Origin: an uncultured bacterium
Lineage (GTDB): Bacteria > Fermentibacterota > Fermentibacteria > Fermentibacterales > Fermentibacteraceae
Assembly: GCA_964603785.1 (NCBI GenBank)
Contig: CAZRWD010000001.1
Span: forward strand, 485,638 to 549,637
Length of the DNA: 64,000 bases
Direction: 5' to 3'
Positions 48,626 to 54,344 of the stretch are shown one piece after another. Both the position numbers and the translations under genes were made by a program. How positions within the stretch are numbered: the stretch's first letter is position 1; every line of letters begins with the position of its first letter. The notes under the pieces are model-generated. The model was not told the origin of the DNA. It saw nothing but the letters and a program-made list of their open reading frames with translations, and searched no databases.

Positions 48626-49543
48626 GTGGTGGAGGTCACGCCCTCCTGCAATCTCTCGTGCCGCTTCTGCTGCAACCCCTGGCACATCTCCTCCGCCCCG
48701 CCCCGGCCGCGTCCCGGGCTCGCGAGCGAACTGGTGGCCTCCCTCGGGAGGCTCTCCCCTTCGGGCATCACCCTATCCGGAGGCGAGCCCCTCCTCCGCG
48801 ACGACCTCGCCGGGATCGTGCGGACGGCGCACGATGCCGCATCGCGAGTCATACTCGCAACGAACGGCACCCTCCTGACGCGGGATCTTGCCGTGCAGCT
48901 CGCGGATGCCGGCCTCGGAGGCTTCCAGATCACGATCCCCACGTGCGACGGGCTCCTGTTCGGGCGCCTCTGCGGAGCCGGGGATCCGGTCCCGGTCAGG
49001 AGCGCGATCGCATCCGCGGCATCCACGGGGCTCCCCGTCTCGGCGGGTTTCCCCGTCACATCAGCCAACTGGCGTGAGGCGGCGGCCGTCCTCAGGACGT
49101 CGGTCGCCTTCGGAGCCGGATCGTTCATGTTGCTGAGGCTCGCCTCCGGGGGCAGGGCTTCGAAACCGGGATTCGACCTGTTCCCCACCCCGGACCAGCT
49201 CGGGGCGGCCGCCATGGACGCCTGCGAGGCGGGAGCGGCCCTGGGGATAACCGTCTATGCCGGGATCACGATGGAGCAATGCTCCTTCGACCTGCCGCCC
49301 GGCATGGCGGACGAGGGCTGTACCGGAGCCGTTGTGAAGTGGGCCGTCGATCCCTGGGGAAGGCTGAGACCCTGCGAGCAGTCGCCGGTCATCCTGGGCG
49401 ATCTGCTGGAGGAGGGTTTCGAAACGCTGTCCGTCTGCGCCGGGGCCGAATCCTTCAGGCTCTGGCGGAGAGGCGGCGGGTGCGGCTCCTGCATGTCGGC
49501 GGAAGCCTGCCGGGGCGGCTGCAGGTATGTGCCTCAGGGCTAG
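48626..49543 (+). CDS. Radical SAM / SPASM-domain enzyme (peptide- or protein-modifying maturase family), start uncertain
   Basis: CNLSCRFCCNPW (CxxxCxxC) and GITLSGGEPLL (GGE motif). C-terminal Cys cluster CGSCMSAEACRGGC (SPASM). No ATG in frame near the N-terminus; GTG at 48626/48629 assumed. Confidence 0.8.
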   Translation: MVEVTPSCNLSCRFCCNPWHISSAPPRPRPGLASELVASLGRLSPSGITLSGGEPLLRDDLAGIVRTAHDAASRVILATNGTLLTRDLAVQLADAGLGGFQITIPTCDGLLFGRLCGAGDPVPVRSAIASAASTGLPVSAGFPVTSANWREAAAVLRTSVAFGAGSFMLLRLASGGRASKPGFDLFPTPDQLGAAAMDACEAGAALGITVYAGITMEQCSFDLPPGMADEGCTGAVVKWAVDPWGRLRPCEQSPVILGDLLEEGFETLSVCAGAESFRLWRRGGGCGSCMSAEACRGGCRYVPQG

Positions 49544-50205
49544 CCGAAGACCTCGCGCCGCCGATCCTCAAGGAAGGCCACGAGACCGTCGACGCCTTCG
49601 CCGGTGAGTGCGCTCGCCCGTATCACCGCCACATCCGCGTTCATGCTCCGGCATTCCTCCTCCGCGCGATCCATGTCGAAGGGGATGTGCGGCGCGAGGT
49701 CCACCTTGTTCAGGATCATGAGGTCGATCCGGCTGAAGAGCGACGGATACTTGAGGACCTTGTCGTCACCCTCCGGAAGAGACAGGATCCCCGCCCTGAG
49801 GTGCTCGCCGAGGTCGTAGGAGCTCGGGCAGATGAGGTTGCCGACGTTCTCGATCACGAGGAACCTGTGGCCTCCGGACGGCAGGTCCATCGAGGCCAGG
49901 GCCCTCCCGACCGAGACGGCATCCAGGTGGCACGCGCCGCCTGTCTCTATCTGGACGGCCTTGACCCCCGCGGCCTTCACCCTGTCGGCATCCCTGCTAG
50001 TCTTGACGTCACCCTCGACCACCGCGAGATCGTTCCCGAGCCTGCGGGCCAGGGCCTCCAGAAGAGTGGTCTTGCCCGCGCCTGGCGAGCTGATGACGTT
50101 GACTGCGAAGAGGCCCAGGCCGGCGAACACGTCCCTGTTCCTCGCGGCCGCCTCGTCGTTGGCCTGCATGACGCTCCGCCTGAGATCCACCCGTGTTCTC
50201 CTCAT
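49540..50205 (-). CDS. hypB: Hydrogenase nickel-incorporation GTPase HypB
   Basis: SSPGAGKTTLLE (P-loop), CHLDA metal-binding motif and NKVDL. Confidence 0.9.
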   Translation of the reverse strand: MRRTRVDLRRSVMQANDEAAARNRDVFAGLGLFAVNVISSPGAGKTTLLEALARRLGNDLAVVEGDVKTSRDADRVKAAGVKAVQIETGGACHLDAVSVGRALASMDLPSGGHRFLVIENVGNLICPSSYDLGEHLRAGILSLPEGDDKVLKYPSLFSRIDLMILNKVDLAPHIPFDMDRAEEECRSMNADVAVIRASALTGEGVDGLVAFLEDRRREVFG

Positions 50206-50717
50206 GCCTTCGATCCACCTCCGCGACAGGCCTCGCAGGTCCGGCCGGACCTCTCCTCCCCCATCTCCTCGAGCAGCAGGTCCACGATGACCGGCAGCGC
50301 CTCCTCGACCTCGGGGGAGAGCTTCTCCTCCAGCATCCTGGGGGGCCTCACGGTGACCCCCAGGATCTCCCAGTCGGGGAAGGATGAGGTCGCACGGAGT
50401 CTTTCGAGGGCGTGCATAACCGATCCTATGTCCGTCTGGTGGAATGACGGGGCGAACGCCCTCGGTGCGCTCCTTCCCCTGGTCACCATGCCCGGCGGCT
50501 CTCCCGCCACGGCGTCGACGAATATGAAGCGCCCGGCGGATCCGATCATGTCCGACACCGCCAGGAGGTCACCCTCCAGGGTGGTCAGGAGCACGCCGTC
50601 CGGCCCGGATCCGCCGAGCCTCTCTCTCAGCATCTCGACCGCCCGAACCCCGGCTCCGTCGTCTCCGGCGAGCGTGTTGCCGATGCCCACGATCGCCAGG
50701 CGGGCACGGGGGGGCAT
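50202..50717 (-). CDS. [NiFe] hydrogenase maturation endopeptidase (HycI/HyaD family)
   Basis: LAIVGIGNTLAGDDGAGVRAVEML N-terminus and the conserved FVDAV motif. ATGA overlap with hypB. Confidence 0.8.
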   Translation of the reverse strand: MPPRARLAIVGIGNTLAGDDGAGVRAVEMLRERLGGSGPDGVLLTTLEGDLLAVSDMIGSAGRFIFVDAVAGEPPGMVTRGRSAPRAFAPSFHQTDIGSVMHALERLRATSSFPDWEILGVTVRPPRMLEEKLSPEVEEALPVIVDLLLEEMGEERSGRTCEACRGGGSKA

Positions 50718-50718
50718 C

Positions 50719-52838: not shown

Positions 52839-52874
52839 GTCATCAACTCCCGGGTCGTCGTCTCCATTTCCCGC

Positions 52875-53792
52875 CTACTTCGCACCTGAAGCCCACTCGC
52901 GCAGTTCCACGGTGGGCTTCCTGTACATCACGGGCGAGGAGAGCGCGTAGGCGTAGAAGGTCTTCGCTTCATCCTGCAGGTACTGCCTGATCTCCGCCTC
53001 GTCGATTCCGGTCAGCATGCCCATCCTCCGTGCGATCATGCTCCGTATGTCGAGGTGCGGCTCCCTGATCAGATCGATCGAGGGTCCGGCGCATCCGGCG
53101 CAGGCCACGCCCTTGTTGGGGCACTGGGCCTTGCACCTGTCGAGGGTCACCGAGCCCATGCAGACCACACCCTGGCTCAGCAGGCACGTCTCCGGGTCCG
53201 GTGCCGACACGGCTCCCCTGTTCAGCTTCACGCCCTCGGTCTTCTTCATGCGGCGGCCGCATTCTGAGCACACGGTCTTGCCCGAGAGCGGCACGCTCTT
53301 CGCACCCAGGAGATGTCTAAGCCCGGCTGCTATGAAGAACGGGTGGGGCGGGCAGCCGGGAAGGTACATGTCCACATCCACGACCTCGTCGATGGGGATC
53401 ACGCTCTCCTCGAGCAGCGGGGCTTCTGTCGGCGAGGTCATGCCCTTCGCATCGGTGGGGTTCCCGCCGTAGGTCTTGGCCAGTATCGACTCGCGCCCGT
53501 GAAGCCAGCCCAGCCCCGAAGGGCCTCCGTAGACCGCGCACGTGCCGAAGGCCACTATCTTGCCGCAGCTCTCGCGCATCTTCAGGAGGGCATGCCTGTC
53601 GTGCTCGCTCCTGACAGCCCCCTCGACGATCCCCACGTCCGCCTTGGGGTAGCCCTTCTCGTCCATGAGAACCGGGACCCTCACGAACTCGACGTCGTCC
53701 ACGAGGTTCAGGAGCTTCTCATGGAGGTCGACCACTGCCACGTGGCATCCCGAACAACCGGAGAGCCACTCGGTGGATACTTTCGCCTTCAC
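52875..53792 (-). CDS. [NiFe] hydrogenase small subunit (group 3-like)
   Basis: GTG start after GGAGG: (M)KAKVSTEWLSGCSGCHVAVVDL, then FGTCAVYGG, LPGCPP and the distal cluster CSECGRRMKK...CMGSVTLDRCKAQCPNKGVACAGC. The 131-codon upstream extension in the track is implausible. Confidence 0.85.
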   Translation of the reverse strand: MKAKVSTEWLSGCSGCHVAVVDLHEKLLNLVDDVEFVRVPVLMDEKGYPKADVGIVEGAVRSEHDRHALLKMRESCGKIVAFGTCAVYGGPSGLGWLHGRESILAKTYGGNPTDAKGMTSPTEAPLLEESVIPIDEVVDVDMYLPGCPPHPFFIAAGLRHLLGAKSVPLSGKTVCSECGRRMKKTEGVKLNRGAVSAPDPETCLLSQGVVCMGSVTLDRCKAQCPNKGVACAGCAGPSIDLIREPHLDIRSMIARRMGMLTGIDEAEIRQYLQDEAKTFYAYALSSPVMYRKPTVELREWASGAK

Positions 53793-54292
53793 TGGGCAGC
53801 CTCCTCGATGATCAGCTCCTTGAGACAGCCGTTGGGACCAGCGTGGAGGATCTCGAGATGAACCGTCCTGCCCGGCATCACGCTCTCCATCGCTCCGGCG
53901 AAGACCCCGTGGGCCATGTAGCAGAGCGACTGCTTCTGTTCGTGCGCGTAGCGGAACAGCGCATTCCGGACCATGCAGGTGCTGAACGCGAGCCTCATCA
54001 CCTTCTTGCCGTCCCGCTCCTCCACAAGCTTTTCCGATTCGCCCTGGAAGGGCTTGAAGTCCCAGACTATCCCCCGCTTCGCCAGGGCGTCCGAGAGGAT
54101 CCCCACAGCCTTCTCGACGTCGTCGGTCTGCTGCGTGCCCTCCACGGCCTCCTTGCCGAACTTCTTCCCCGCCAGCATGCATATCGAGAGGCTGCTCTTC
54201 CCGAGATTCAGCTCCGAAGCATGGGCCAGGGCGCCGAGCAGGTAGGCCACACCCTGGAAACGGGACAGATCAGTGTCTTCCGTCTTGACCAT
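53789..54292 (-). CDS. V4R-domain protein (4-vinyl reductase/TRAPP-Bet3-like fold)
   Basis: C-terminal ...LAFSTCMVRNALF....QSLCYMAHGVFAGAMESV....LEILHAGPNGCLKELI V4R Cys pattern. GTGA/ATGA-type overlap with the small-subunit start. Confidence 0.5.
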   Translation of the reverse strand: MVKTEDTDLSRFQGVAYLLGALAHASELNLGKSSLSICMLAGKKFGKEAVEGTQQTDDVEKAVGILSDALAKRGIVWDFKPFQGESEKLVEERDGKKVMRLAFSTCMVRNALFRYAHEQKQSLCYMAHGVFAGAMESVMPGRTVHLEILHAGPNGCLKELIIEEAAQ

Positions 54293-54344
54293 CCGGTCCA
54301 CCTCTCACCCTCGCTTCGACCCCATCCTGCGCCAGAATTCGACC

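Follow-up and report, generated by a model that had tools for sequence, protein, structure and literature searches.

The window, a 64,000-nucleotide stretch of a contig from an uncultured Fermentibacteraceae bacterium, contained a cluster of 11 genes, all on the minus strand and spanning 49540..58085 by ORF coordinates. Read along that strand, the core of the cluster encodes a V4R/Bet3-fold protein (V4R-A, 167 aa, 53789..54292), the small (305 aa, 52875..53792) and large (465 aa, 51441..52838) subunits of a [NiFe] hydrogenase, a fusion of a ferredoxin with a second V4R-like domain, V4R-B (241 aa, 50719..51444), and a hydrogenase maturation endopeptidase (50202..50717); the gene for the nickel-insertion GTPase HypB (49540..50205) comes next. 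Four-base overlaps were present at three junctions: GTGA between the V4R-A stop and the GTG start of the small subunit, TTGA between the large-subunit stop and the TTG start of the fusion, and ATGA between the protease and HypB. A first-pass annotation had placed six ORFs in 49540-54301, and all of them were found on the minus strand where it had put them, including the ferredoxin fusion with its TTGA overlap. Its description of a "minimal" hydrogenase unit did not hold, because five more genes on the same strand extend the cluster directly upstream of V4R-A.

The large subunit (PF00374) has both Ni-binding motifs, RICGVC at residues 59-64 and DPCLACATH at residues 429-437, as had been read from its 465-aa ORF earlier, and the second motif is followed by a 28-aa C-terminal tail of the cleavable type. 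The small subunit matched Oxidored_q6 (PF01058, E 3e-27) and has 12 invariant Cys residues, which would be consistent with three clusters. The top NCBIfam matches of the two subunits were VhuA (266 bits against a cut-off of 800) and VhuG (224 bits against 450), respectively, and the small subunit can be described as Mvh/VhuG-like. The HycI-type protease and HypB reported downstream were borne out by TIGR00072 (76 bits, cut-off 47) and TIGR00073 (237 bits, cut-off 121). In nearly all loci whose sequence extended far enough, the endopeptidase gene came after the fusion gene; the place of the HypB gene differed among other loci.

Both flanking proteins had been assigned to the V4R family, an assignment that holds only at the level of predicted fold. 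The V4R profile (PF02830), proposed as a check for 53789..54292 and 50719..51444, matched neither protein even at E<=10. V4R-A matched no Pfam family, and its identification is based on fold matches, family alignment and census; the C-terminal domain of the fusion was hit by PF14196 below threshold (E 5e-4; 21 bits, cut-off 28). However, the predicted model of V4R-A (pLDDT 82) had Bet3/TRAPP as its best structural match (Z 10.6), followed by MJ1460, a "vinyl-4-reductase family protein" (Z 9.4), and the MopR/PoxR sensors (Z ~9), and the model of the fusion matched H-NOX, DmpR and Bet3. The two V4R-like proteins show weak mutual homology. The ferredoxin part of the fusion, with two CxxCxxCxxxCP motifs and matches to Fer4 families, is of the 2x[4Fe-4S] type. 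Both V4R-like proteins are rich in conserved Cys residues. In V4R-A these are spaced C-x17-C-x31-C and accompanied by a His (C106 in 96/96, C124 in 78/78, C156 in 102/102 and H117 in 69/78 census carriers). In V4R-B the spacing is C-x5-C-x11-C-x30-C; Cys 182, 188, 200 and 231 were invariant across an alignment of 28 homologs, and among census carriers C182 was conserved in 51/51, C200 in 60/66, C231 in 36/45 and C188 in 48/75.

The five upstream genes encode two Roadblock/LC7 proteins, an MglA-type small Ras-like GTPase, a PATAN (DUF4388) domain protein and a DnaA-like AAA+ ATPase. Robl1 (57636..58085, PF03259, E 8e-18) has an uncertain start, as an ATG at 58049 would better suit its 118-aa homologs. 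Robl2 (57049..57558, PF03259, E 2.8e-10) is MglB-like, although its score with the NCBIfam MglB model (76 bits) is under the cut-off of 200. These two are the only Roadblock genes of the whole genome. The GTPase (56487..57068; Pfam Arf, 24.8 bits, cut-off 22.3) has a GPGMSGKT P-loop, a TIPGQ G3 motif without Asp, an Arg adjoining the G2 Thr, and NKRD, and was classified as MglA-type by published motif criteria (PMC4316618). The PATAN protein (55748..56446) matched PF14332 (E 1.1e-15). The ATPase (54345..55745; Bac_DnaA, E 5.6e-21), whose ATG at 55745 lies 2 bases past the PATAN stop, gave no match to a DNA-binding domain, and a gene of this kind was present at this position only in Fermentibacterota loci.

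The core gene order was unchanged across 65 bacterial loci spanning seven phyla or more, with Fermentibacterota, Acidobacteriota, Desulfuromonadales, Methylomirabilota, Eisenbacteria, Fibrobacterota and Chitinivibrionales represented. More remote relatives (41-46% identity) kept the order, with ferredoxin and V4R-B either fused or separate, and a split variant (ferredoxin, V4R, small subunit, large subunit, then Roadblock) occurred in Methanobacteriaceae and one Methanomicrobiales genome. We further carried out a census of 36,145 genera, in which the presence of a [NiFe] large subunit (PF00374) within 5 kb of the carrier gene was compared with random places. V4R-A had such a neighbor in 102/105 carrier genera (random, <3); by band of likeness the counts were 36/39, 45/45, a band with under 5 tried, and 15/18. 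V4R-B was adjacent to a [NiFe] hydrogenase in 69/75 carrier genera (39/42, 15/15, 9/12 and 3/3 by band; random, 0). Thus, both V4R-like families occur almost exclusively beside [NiFe] hydrogenases. Median identity in other phyla was 64% for V4R-A and 60% for the large subunit; the corresponding values within Fermentibacterota were 75% and 61%. By sequence, V4R-A is as conserved as the catalytic subunits. A hydrogenase type whose genes are always accompanied by those for a ferredoxin and two V4R-like proteins, and in most cases by Roadblock and PATAN genes, is shown to form a conserved cross-phylum module built around a distinct clade of Mvh-like (group 3) enzymes.

Signaling genes recur around this module. 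A Roadblock homolog was found upstream in 52/56 bacterial loci, PATAN in 40/56 and the MglA-type GTPase in 25/56; in most bacterial loci an ortholog of Robl1 precedes the V4R gene, with a median identity in other phyla of 55%, and the GTPase was common only in Fermentibacterota, with ~3 loci of other phyla having it within 8 kb. In a Desulfuromonadales MAG, a REC-PATAN-Roadblock fusion immediately precedes V4R-A, and an Acidobacteriota MAG has the order hybrid histidine kinase, Robl2, GTPase, PATAN, Robl1 and V4R-A. Neighbors at distant loci included an MCP, an FHA-GAF-HD protein, a Ser/Thr kinase and a response regulator; across phyla, Roadblock, PATAN, MglA, REC, histidine kinase and MCP genes were recurrent. 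Full-text literature searches revealed no paper in which a hydrogenase is connected with V4R/COG1719, Roadblock or MglA, in agreement with the first-pass view of V4R proteins as undescribed hydrogenase partners, a partnership that the census linkage supports.

Among the closest known systems are the group 3c enzymes (MvhAGD/VhuAGD), whose HMMs were the best match for each of the two subunits. Identity of the large subunit to Methanobacterium MvhA, and likewise to the V4R-linked paralog of MvhA, is 34-40%, and both enzyme types are cytoplasmic, with a three-cluster small subunit and a protease-processed large subunit. One might therefore read the locus as an ordinary group 3c hydrogenase that uses a remote MvhD-Hdr complex and has unrelated V4R and Roadblock neighbors, particularly as VhuA and VhuG were the top family matches and one MvhD is encoded beside HdrA, HdrC and HdrB on the same contig. 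We consider this very unlikely, and the census and trees largely refute it. The absence of an MvhD, diaphorase or HoxEFU partner noted earlier was confirmed: no MvhD, Hdr or diaphorase gene is present in the hydrogenase cluster, and the only MvhD of the genome belongs to a separate cluster ~70 kb distant, hdrA-mvhD-NAD(P)H-module-hdrCB, that encodes input subunits (NAD(P)-binding and Fe-S) of its own. Across 79 related loci, neither MvhD nor HdrA occurred within 8 kb, and no locus had mvhD or Hdr next to the enzyme; unlike in group 3c, V4R-A fills the upstream slot and a ferredoxin(-V4R) gene follows the large subunit. The V4R-linked large subunits formed their own clade (FastTree support 99, IQ-TREE SH-aLRT 98), which excluded the Hox enzyme of the same genome. 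True MvhD-linked enzymes (Geobacter, L114; Methanobacterium mvhDGAB in L116; P0248) keep mvhD adjoining and were placed elsewhere in the tree, the scores with VhuA and VhuG are far under the family cut-offs, and the V4R linkage far exceeds chance. The tree did not resolve archaeal and bacterial V4R-linked enzymes as one clade. These enzymes represent a widespread, apparently undescribed kind of soluble [NiFe] hydrogenase without the usual electron-accepting partners. The suggestion of a new hydrogenase subtype or sensor-coupled hydrogenase is supported by the separate clade, the census, the signaling neighbors and the lack of MvhD and HdrA.

The V4R-like pair, ferredoxin, Roadblock and PATAN partners suggest an H2-sensing device as much as a metabolic enzyme. 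Our working proposal, tentative and put at a little less than even odds, is that electrons from this group-3 hydrogenase end in the Cys-rich V4R pair, providing H2/redox input to a Roadblock/MglA switch. The Ni-Fe site would split H2, and the three clusters of the small subunit would pass electrons to the two [4Fe-4S] clusters of the ferredoxin domain and on to a putative metal or Fe-S/thiol site made of the four V4R-B Cys and the three Cys and His of V4R-A, the two domains probably forming a pair. The adjacent Roadblock protein might read the redox state of this pair and signal to a PATAN/REC output or the MglB-like/MglA GTPase switch, such that the complex would inform a switch of the polarity, motility or regulation type about H2 or redox status. 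Regulatory and putative sensory hydrogenases include [NiFe] group 2b (HoxBC-HoxJ), putative group 2c and [FeFe] group C (HydS), the last of which has additional Fe-S clusters that connect to a domain of the sensor type. They provide the working analogy: they share the genetic tie to signal-transduction proteins, and the Fe-S path of HydS resembles the ferredoxin-to-V4R path. However, the present lineage belongs to group 3, and its transducer would be V4R, Roadblock and PATAN/MglA proteins rather than a histidine kinase, diguanylate cyclase or PAS domain. To our knowledge, group 2b sensors have neither a cleavable C-terminal tail nor a dedicated protease, and the retention of both here argues against a sensor, as do a 2x[4Fe-4S] ferredoxin suited to a catalytic enzyme reaching a soluble acceptor, the near confinement of the GTPase to Fermentibacterota, the unresolved archaeal-bacterial grouping and the failure of the Pfam V4R model. 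In its favor, the Roadblock genes are unique to this cluster in the genome, signaling neighbors recur, a Methanobacterium genome has the enzyme on top of Frh and Mvh, and the conserved Cys and His residues of the V4R-like proteins are of a ligand type. Characterized V4R domains are sensors (MopR, PoxR and DmpR, among the fold matches, and MsvR, in which three conserved V4R cysteines work as a redox switch, PMC3729527), and this was counted for the proposal. V4R-A and V4R-B share with these and MJ1460 the fold (Z ~9) and conserved Cys in the C-terminal half, but differ in Cys spacing, which is unlike the canonical V4R zinc/redox site and counts against the proposal, and their chains include neither a DNA-binding nor an AAA+ output.

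Gene neighborhood cannot separate a sensor from a regulated enzyme, and the main rival to the sensor reading, a soluble hydrogenase that serves metabolism through a new acceptor module, is a real possibility, if not a probable one. The ferredoxin domain and V4R pair would then be the exit site, either as a docking place for a soluble carrier or as a hydrophobic pocket for a small-molecule acceptor reduced by H2 (or supplying the electrons for H2 evolution in fermenters), and the Roadblock, PATAN and MglA genes would regulate, localize or merely accompany the enzyme. The catalytic-type set is complete (Ni-binding motifs, three-cluster small subunit, tail, protease and HypB), all subunits are very strongly conserved, a ferredoxin was present in every locus, fused or separate, and V4R-A occupies the slot of mvhD in mvhDGA operons. 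V4R/Bet3/H-NOX folds also take hydrophobic ligands, as seen in fold matches that are complexes with phenol, palmitate and haem, and a "sulfhydrogenase" was assumed in this phylum in the Hyd24-12 genome paper (PMC5030696). Yet no acceptor-specific domain (flavin, NAD(P), F420 or Hdr) is present, the nearly constant adjacent Roadblock gene and recurrent signaling fusions are unusual for a plain catabolic enzyme, and methanogen carriers already own the full known set of metabolic hydrogenases; a Methanobacterium genome has the V4R-linked enzyme besides Frh and Mvh. It is improbable, in our view, that the V4R and Roadblock proteins are non-sensing assembly, scaffolding or membrane/pole-tethering factors off the electron path, localizing the hydrogenase as MglA/MglB localize motility machinery or TRAPP tethers vesicles. 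The Bet3-like fold comes from a tethering complex, maturation genes share the operon, and MglA/MglB are polarity proteins (PMC4316618), but the invariant Cys/His sets of both V4R proteins and the covalent V4R-B-ferredoxin fusion point to redox chemistry. We also know of no precedent among [NiFe] maturation factors.

Among small-GTPase systems, the nearest were the MglA/MglB/PATAN modules and the actinobacterial conservon (CvnA-D). Features in common are a GTPase of the MglA type, whose G3 has no Asp and which has an intrinsic Arg, MglB-like Roadblock proteins and a PATAN neighbor; the survey describing them reported no hydrogenase or V4R neighbor (PMC4316618), and here a redox enzyme rather than a membrane kinase would provide the input. 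The eukaryotic TRAPP core, a Rab GEF in which pairs of Bet3-family proteins associate with longin/roadblock-like subunits, offers another parallel. In contrast to TRAPP, the putative complex here is prokaryotic and redox-linked, without a known membrane-traffic context. Nevertheless, Bet3 was the best match of V4R-A, the genes for two Bet3-fold proteins stand together with those for Roadblock-fold proteins, and a Ras-like GTPase joins the V4R-linked hydrogenase cluster in the Fermentibacterota lineage.

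The module identified here is dedicated, ancient and widely transferred: it combines a distinct clade of Mvh-like hydrogenases with ferredoxin, V4R-fold proteins and, usually, Roadblock. In the window it is represented by six closely packed genes on the minus strand (49540-54292), in agreement with the hydrogenase, protease, HypB and flanking genes that the first-pass annotation had placed at 49540-54301. V4R-A, the V4R/Bet3-fold protein encoded before the small subunit (53789-54292, 167 aa), starts with an ATG at 54292 behind a GAGG-type site, the same start as in an identical database protein. 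The small subunit (52875-53792) comes next, with a GTG start that shares the bases GTGA with the V4R-A stop. After the large subunit (51441-52838) follows a ferredoxin fused with a C-terminal V4R-type domain, V4R-B (50719-51444); its gene starts with TTG and shares the bases TTGA with the stop of the large-subunit gene, just as had been read from the sequence. The last two genes encode an endopeptidase (50202-50717) and HypB (49540-50205, ATGA overlap), and Pfam and NCBIfam gave concordant assignments for these two and for the hydrogenase. The earlier view of a "minimal" hydrogenase unit had to be given up: the same strand continues immediately upstream with five further genes, for a DnaA-like AAA+ ATPase next to V4R-A (54345-55745), a PATAN/DUF4388 protein (55748-56446), an MglA-type small GTPase (56487-57068) and two Roadblock/LC7 proteins, Robl2 (57049-57558) and Robl1 (57636-58085). 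A promoter and terminator scan of 49000-58600 gave matches no higher than the shuffled background, so the operon limits are drawn from gene spacing only. The window (G+C 65-70%) is on contig 1 of a 2.44 Mb genome that is 99% complete, and its genes have close relatives in Candidatus Fermentibacteria MAGs.

The large subunit carries both nickel-binding motifs, RICGVC at residues 59-64 and DPCLACATH at 429-437, and matched PF00374 with 97 bits (cut-off 25.8), identifying it as a [NiFe] hydrogenase large subunit. The small subunit has 12 invariant cysteines, sufficient for three clusters. The top family models, VhuA (266 bits, cut-off 800) and VhuG (224 bits, cut-off 450), both narrow equivalog models, were of the Mvh type, group 3c. 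Group 3c is defined by MvhD encoded with the enzyme and by linkage to HdrABC, an arrangement not found at the window cluster. MvhD (PF02662) was absent from the cluster, the sole copy in the genome lying 70 kb away, and no tblastn match to MvhD or HdrA was detected within 8 kb in 79 related loci. HoxE/F/U diaphorase genes, which define group 3d (HoxEFUYH), were also absent from the cluster, and the genome's own complete HoxEF-U-Y-H set is located on contig 8 and belongs to a different clade. The reported lack of MvhD, diaphorase and HoxEFU partners was thus borne out. In group 2b regulatory hydrogenases the large subunit is not known to have a cleavable C-terminal tail or a protease, and signaling goes via a HoxJ/HupT kinase. 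The window enzyme has a 28-aa tail past His437 and a dedicated endopeptidase, its best similarity is to group 3, and we do not regard it as a group 2b member, though it may work in a sensor-like manner.

Phylogenetic analyses of large subunits (FastTree of 134 sequences, IQ-TREE of 59) placed the window protein in a clade of 9-10 representatives (FastTree support 99, IQ-TREE SH-aLRT 98), and V4R/ferredoxin neighbors were present in every clade member looked up. The MvhD-linked enzymes (a Geobacter small-large-protease-HdrA-MvhD set, Methanobacterium mvhDGAB, and one sequence with FlpD encoded upstream, P0248), the HoxEF-U-Y-H enzyme of the window genome, and the group 3b and Frh references all fell outside this clade. 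Sister sequences showed a small-large-ferredoxin arrangement, one with a V4R-A-like gene. Archaeal V4R-linked enzymes grouped loosely with Methanobacterium MvhA in trees that leave the deep backbone without resolution, and the association may have arisen once or several times.

The flanking proteins had been described as V4R-domain proteins, a claim to be checked with the PF02830 HMM and refuted if the similarity was not significant. Neither of them matched this model even at E≤10, so that, as worded, this test went against the claim, and we do not file V4R-A and the fusion in that Pfam family; the C-terminal 150 residues of the fusion gave only a sub-threshold match to PF14196. The claim held at the level of predicted fold. 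The V4R-A model (pLDDT 82) aligned with Bet3/TRAPP (Z 10.6, rmsd 4.1, 139 aligned residues), with 2oso (MJ1460, "vinyl-4-reductase family protein"; Z 9.4, rmsd 3.4, 104 aligned) and with the phenol-sensor domains of MopR/PoxR/DmpR (Z about 9), and Foldseek reported a probability of 1.00 with E-values down to 5e-5. The fusion model (pLDDT 76) matched H-NOX, DmpR and Bet3 (E 3e-4 to 1e-3). By these models, both proteins belong, at the fold level, to the V4R/Bet3/H-NOX-like superfamily. V4R-A and the fusion aligned in BLASTP (E 2e-5 over 142 residues) with their cysteines in register. Profile comparison with hhalign was weak (E 0.0036, probability 9%), so the case for their homology is built on the BLASTP match, the aligned cysteines and the shared fold. 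Conserved ligand-type residues are C106, H117, C124 and C156 in V4R-A and C182, C188, C200 and C231 in V4R-B, the first, third and fourth positions being equivalent. The N-terminal part of the fusion has eight invariant Cys (11, 14, 17, 21, 43, 46, 49 and 53) in two CxxCxxCxxxCP motifs and exceeded the cut-offs of Fer4, Fer4_10 and Fer4_7; as first proposed, it is a bacterial-type 2x[4Fe-4S] ferredoxin.

Some JGI records name V4R-A homologs "predicted hydrocarbon binding protein", the COG1719 name. In the Protein Atlas, the clusters nearest V4R-A were unnamed, and farther ones were labelled TRAPP, ATC_hydrolase or RdxA_C on a minority of members, labels that serve as leads only. The V4R-A alignment profile had no meaningful match among PDB sequences, and a search for longer proteins containing V4R-A, a weak form of evidence, found none. 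When the complex of small subunit, fusion and V4R-A was predicted, substituting the small subunit as a control hardly lowered the score, and we give the prediction no weight for or against binding.

A scan with the profile of the fusion, covering a single genome of each species, yielded 79 loci. The first-pass annotation had proposed looking for the fusion beside [NiFe] hydrogenases in other MAGs, and it was indeed found there: the order V4R-A, small subunit, large subunit, ferredoxin-V4R-B, protease was kept in all 65 bacterial loci of judgeable length, from Fermentibacterota, Acidobacteriota (Thermoanaerobaculia, Bryobacterales), Desulfuromonadales/Geobacter/Pelobacter, Methylomirabilota, Eisenbacteria, Fibrobacterota and Chitinivibrionales. 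V4R-A was as conserved as the catalytic subunits. The 14 archaeal loci (Methanobacteriaceae and one Methanomicrobiales) had separate ferredoxin and V4R-A-like genes, followed by the small subunit, the large subunit and a Roadblock-containing protein. Even where large subunits were only 41-46% identical to that of the window, the neighbors were unchanged, with ferredoxin and V4R-B either fused or split. In a Methanobacterium genome, the V4R-linked enzyme was additional to Frh and Mvh. A census of 36,145 genera detected V4R-A in 105 genera from 18 phyla, and 102 of these carriers have a [NiFe] large subunit no more than 5 kb away; in successive likeness bands, the neighbor was present in 36/39 and 45/45 carriers, then came a band with fewer than 5 tried, and the last gave 15/18, whereas random places gave under 3. 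The V4R-B domain had 75 carriers, 69 with the neighbor (39/42, 15/15, 9/12 and 3/3 by band; 0 at random places).

Two Methanobacteriaceae loci (L086, 8001-8810, and L076, 8001-8831) had the ferredoxin and V4R-A-like genes in one reading frame, separated by 1-2 stop codons and a few codons and spanned by a single tblastn match; compared with the bacterial ferredoxin-V4R-B fusion, this boundary marks a site of gene fission or fusion. One Geobacter MAG contained two paralogous V4R-linked clusters (L100 and a second copy, L115 4755-8200), one orthologous to that of the window and the other 41-46% identical with ferredoxin and V4R-B apparently split, in addition to an MvhD/HdrA-linked enzyme and a 3b enzyme.

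HMM matches to PF03259 identify both Robl1 (64.4 bits, cut-off 23) and Robl2 (40.2 bits) as Roadblock/LC7 proteins; Robl2 resembles MglB, with 76 bits, under the cut-off of that model. The gene at 55748-56446 encodes a PATAN/DUF4388 protein (PF14332, 58.2 bits, cut-off 25). MglA proteins are marked by a P-loop, by a G3 motif lacking the Asp that is universal elsewhere, and by an intrinsic Arg adjacent to the G2 Thr (Wuichet and Sogaard-Andersen, PMC4316618). The window GTPase (Pfam Arf, 24.8 bits, cut-off 22.3; no match in NCBIfam) has GPGMSGKT, TIPGQ, which lacks the Asp, ERT, with the Arg beside the G2 Thr, and NKRD, and by these motifs is a member of the MglA family. The genome has three MglA-like genes, and a genome-wide Pfam scan found only two Roadblock genes, both in the window cluster. 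The two further GTPase paralogs (contig 1, 450993-451538 and 459179-459730; 43-46% identical) are located 27-35 kb before the window.

We further checked the 56 bacterial loci in which the sequence upstream of V4R-A extends for 1 kb or more. A Roadblock homolog was present upstream in 52 of them, on the same strand within 1 kb in 32 of these 52 (median gap 182 bp); a PATAN protein was found in 40/56 and an MglA-type GTPase in 25/56, mainly in Fermentibacterota. In a Desulfuromonadales MAG, a REC-PATAN-Roadblock fusion stops 26 bases before V4R-A, and an Acidobacteriota MAG had the order hybrid histidine kinase, Robl2, GTPase, PATAN, Robl1, V4R-A. Distant loci also contained an MCP, an FHA-GAF-HD protein, a Ser/Thr kinase, a response regulator and more Roadblock genes. 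The association of Roadblock with the hydrogenase persists despite its varying position. In three distant members (L113, 6413-7473; L109, 7171-7518; L117, 3363-3716) the Roadblock genes are downstream of the hydrogenase and not upstream, and in L113 a ParA/NifH-like ATPase is encoded about 700 bp beyond Roadblock, past a 155-aa ORF.

We tentatively favor a role of the module in H2 or redox sensing, giving it somewhat less than an even chance. In the mechanism we infer, H2-derived electrons would travel along the small subunit, then through the ferredoxin domain, and reach a V4R-A:V4R-B pair at its Cys/His site, Roadblock would read the state of this pair, and the signal would pass from Roadblock to PATAN/REC or MglA. 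Sensing is favored because signaling genes recur around the hydrogenase, because the enzyme is an extra paralog in methanogens, because regulatory hydrogenases give a precedent, and because all characterized V4R domains are sensors, including that of MsvR, whose cysteines are redox-active (PMC3729527). The catalytic-type features and the ferredoxin suit a metabolic enzyme equally well, and the main rival is such an enzyme with a new acceptor module, a real possibility that we rate somewhat below sensing; it would point to an unknown electron acceptor. Partnership with the MvhD-Hdr cluster 70 kb away was also considered, and we rejected it as unlikely because that cluster carries NAD(P)-type input subunits of its own; the lack of MvhD and HdrA around the 79 loci also counted against it.

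A more specific form of the sensing reading, which we consider less likely than not but worth stating, is that both V4R proteins, with their Bet3 fold, would join the Roadblock protein(s) in a TRAPP/Ragulator-like platform on the [NiFe] hydrogenase. H2 oxidation would set the redox state of the V4R Cys/His residues and so switch how the platform acts toward its partner, either an MglA-type GTPase or PATAN-REC. If so, it would be a direct signaling route from H2 to a small GTPase, from Fermentibacterota to methanogens, and would offer a candidate for the H2 sensor that has yet to be identified in methanogens and other anaerobes. Bet3-like and Roadblock-like proteins are building blocks of eukaryotic GTPase-regulating complexes, and here they are placed together in a single conserved prokaryotic operon.

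The partner modules of group 3 hydrogenases (F420, NAD(P), Hdr, NAD) are the basis on which these enzymes are classified and interpreted. We rate the present module as a group 3 [NiFe] hydrogenase with a new partner set, which defines a further widespread combination (ferredoxin, V4R-fold proteins and Roadblock; about 105 of 36,145 sampled genera, 18 phyla). V4R had initially been thought new as a hydrogenase partner, and our full-text literature searches, with subscription journals outside their scope, found no paper tying V4R/COG1719, "hydrocarbon binding protein", Roadblock, MglA or PATAN to hydrogenase; given that scope, we provisionally call the module undescribed. Current annotations of the partner proteins are only "hypothetical protein" and "4Fe-4S binding protein", and metabolic reconstructions likely bin the V4R-linked enzyme as 3c or "sulfhydrogenase". 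If the module is a sensor, it would offer a concrete candidate for H2 perception in strict anaerobes including methanogens, and would connect the sensing of redox state with the Ras-like GTPase switches of prokaryotes, for which the inputs are, to our knowledge, largely unknown. Of hydrogenases, the Hyd24-12 genome paper names one coupled to NAD and a presumed sulfhydrogenase, and no others (PMC5030696).

Several additional features were observed in this genome. A cluster on contig 1 (602700-610460; L006, 4718-12457) encodes HdrA (1013 aa), MvhD, a Fer4_22 protein, an NAD-binding/DHODB Fe-S protein, HdrC and HdrB. It adjoins no hydrogenase, and its gene content suggests an Hdr complex supplied by NAD(P)H. 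The DnaA/Hda-like ATPase of the window (54345-55745, minus strand) has a long Pro/Glu/Ala-rich tail and matched neither the DnaA N-terminal nor the DNA-binding domain; in every Fermentibacterota locus it separates the PATAN gene from V4R-A, and it is not at that place in other phyla. A radical SAM protein with a Cys-rich C-terminus (48323-49543, plus strand) is convergent with HypB, overlapping its end by 4 bases. Finally, the stretch 25000-34500 has a low GC content (55-59%, compared to about 67-68% elsewhere) and matched no Rfam family. Its products include large proteins that contain FG-GAP repeats and a FlgD-Ig-like domain, as well as several proteins with no Pfam match, and the stretch may be a variable or acquired surface-protein island.
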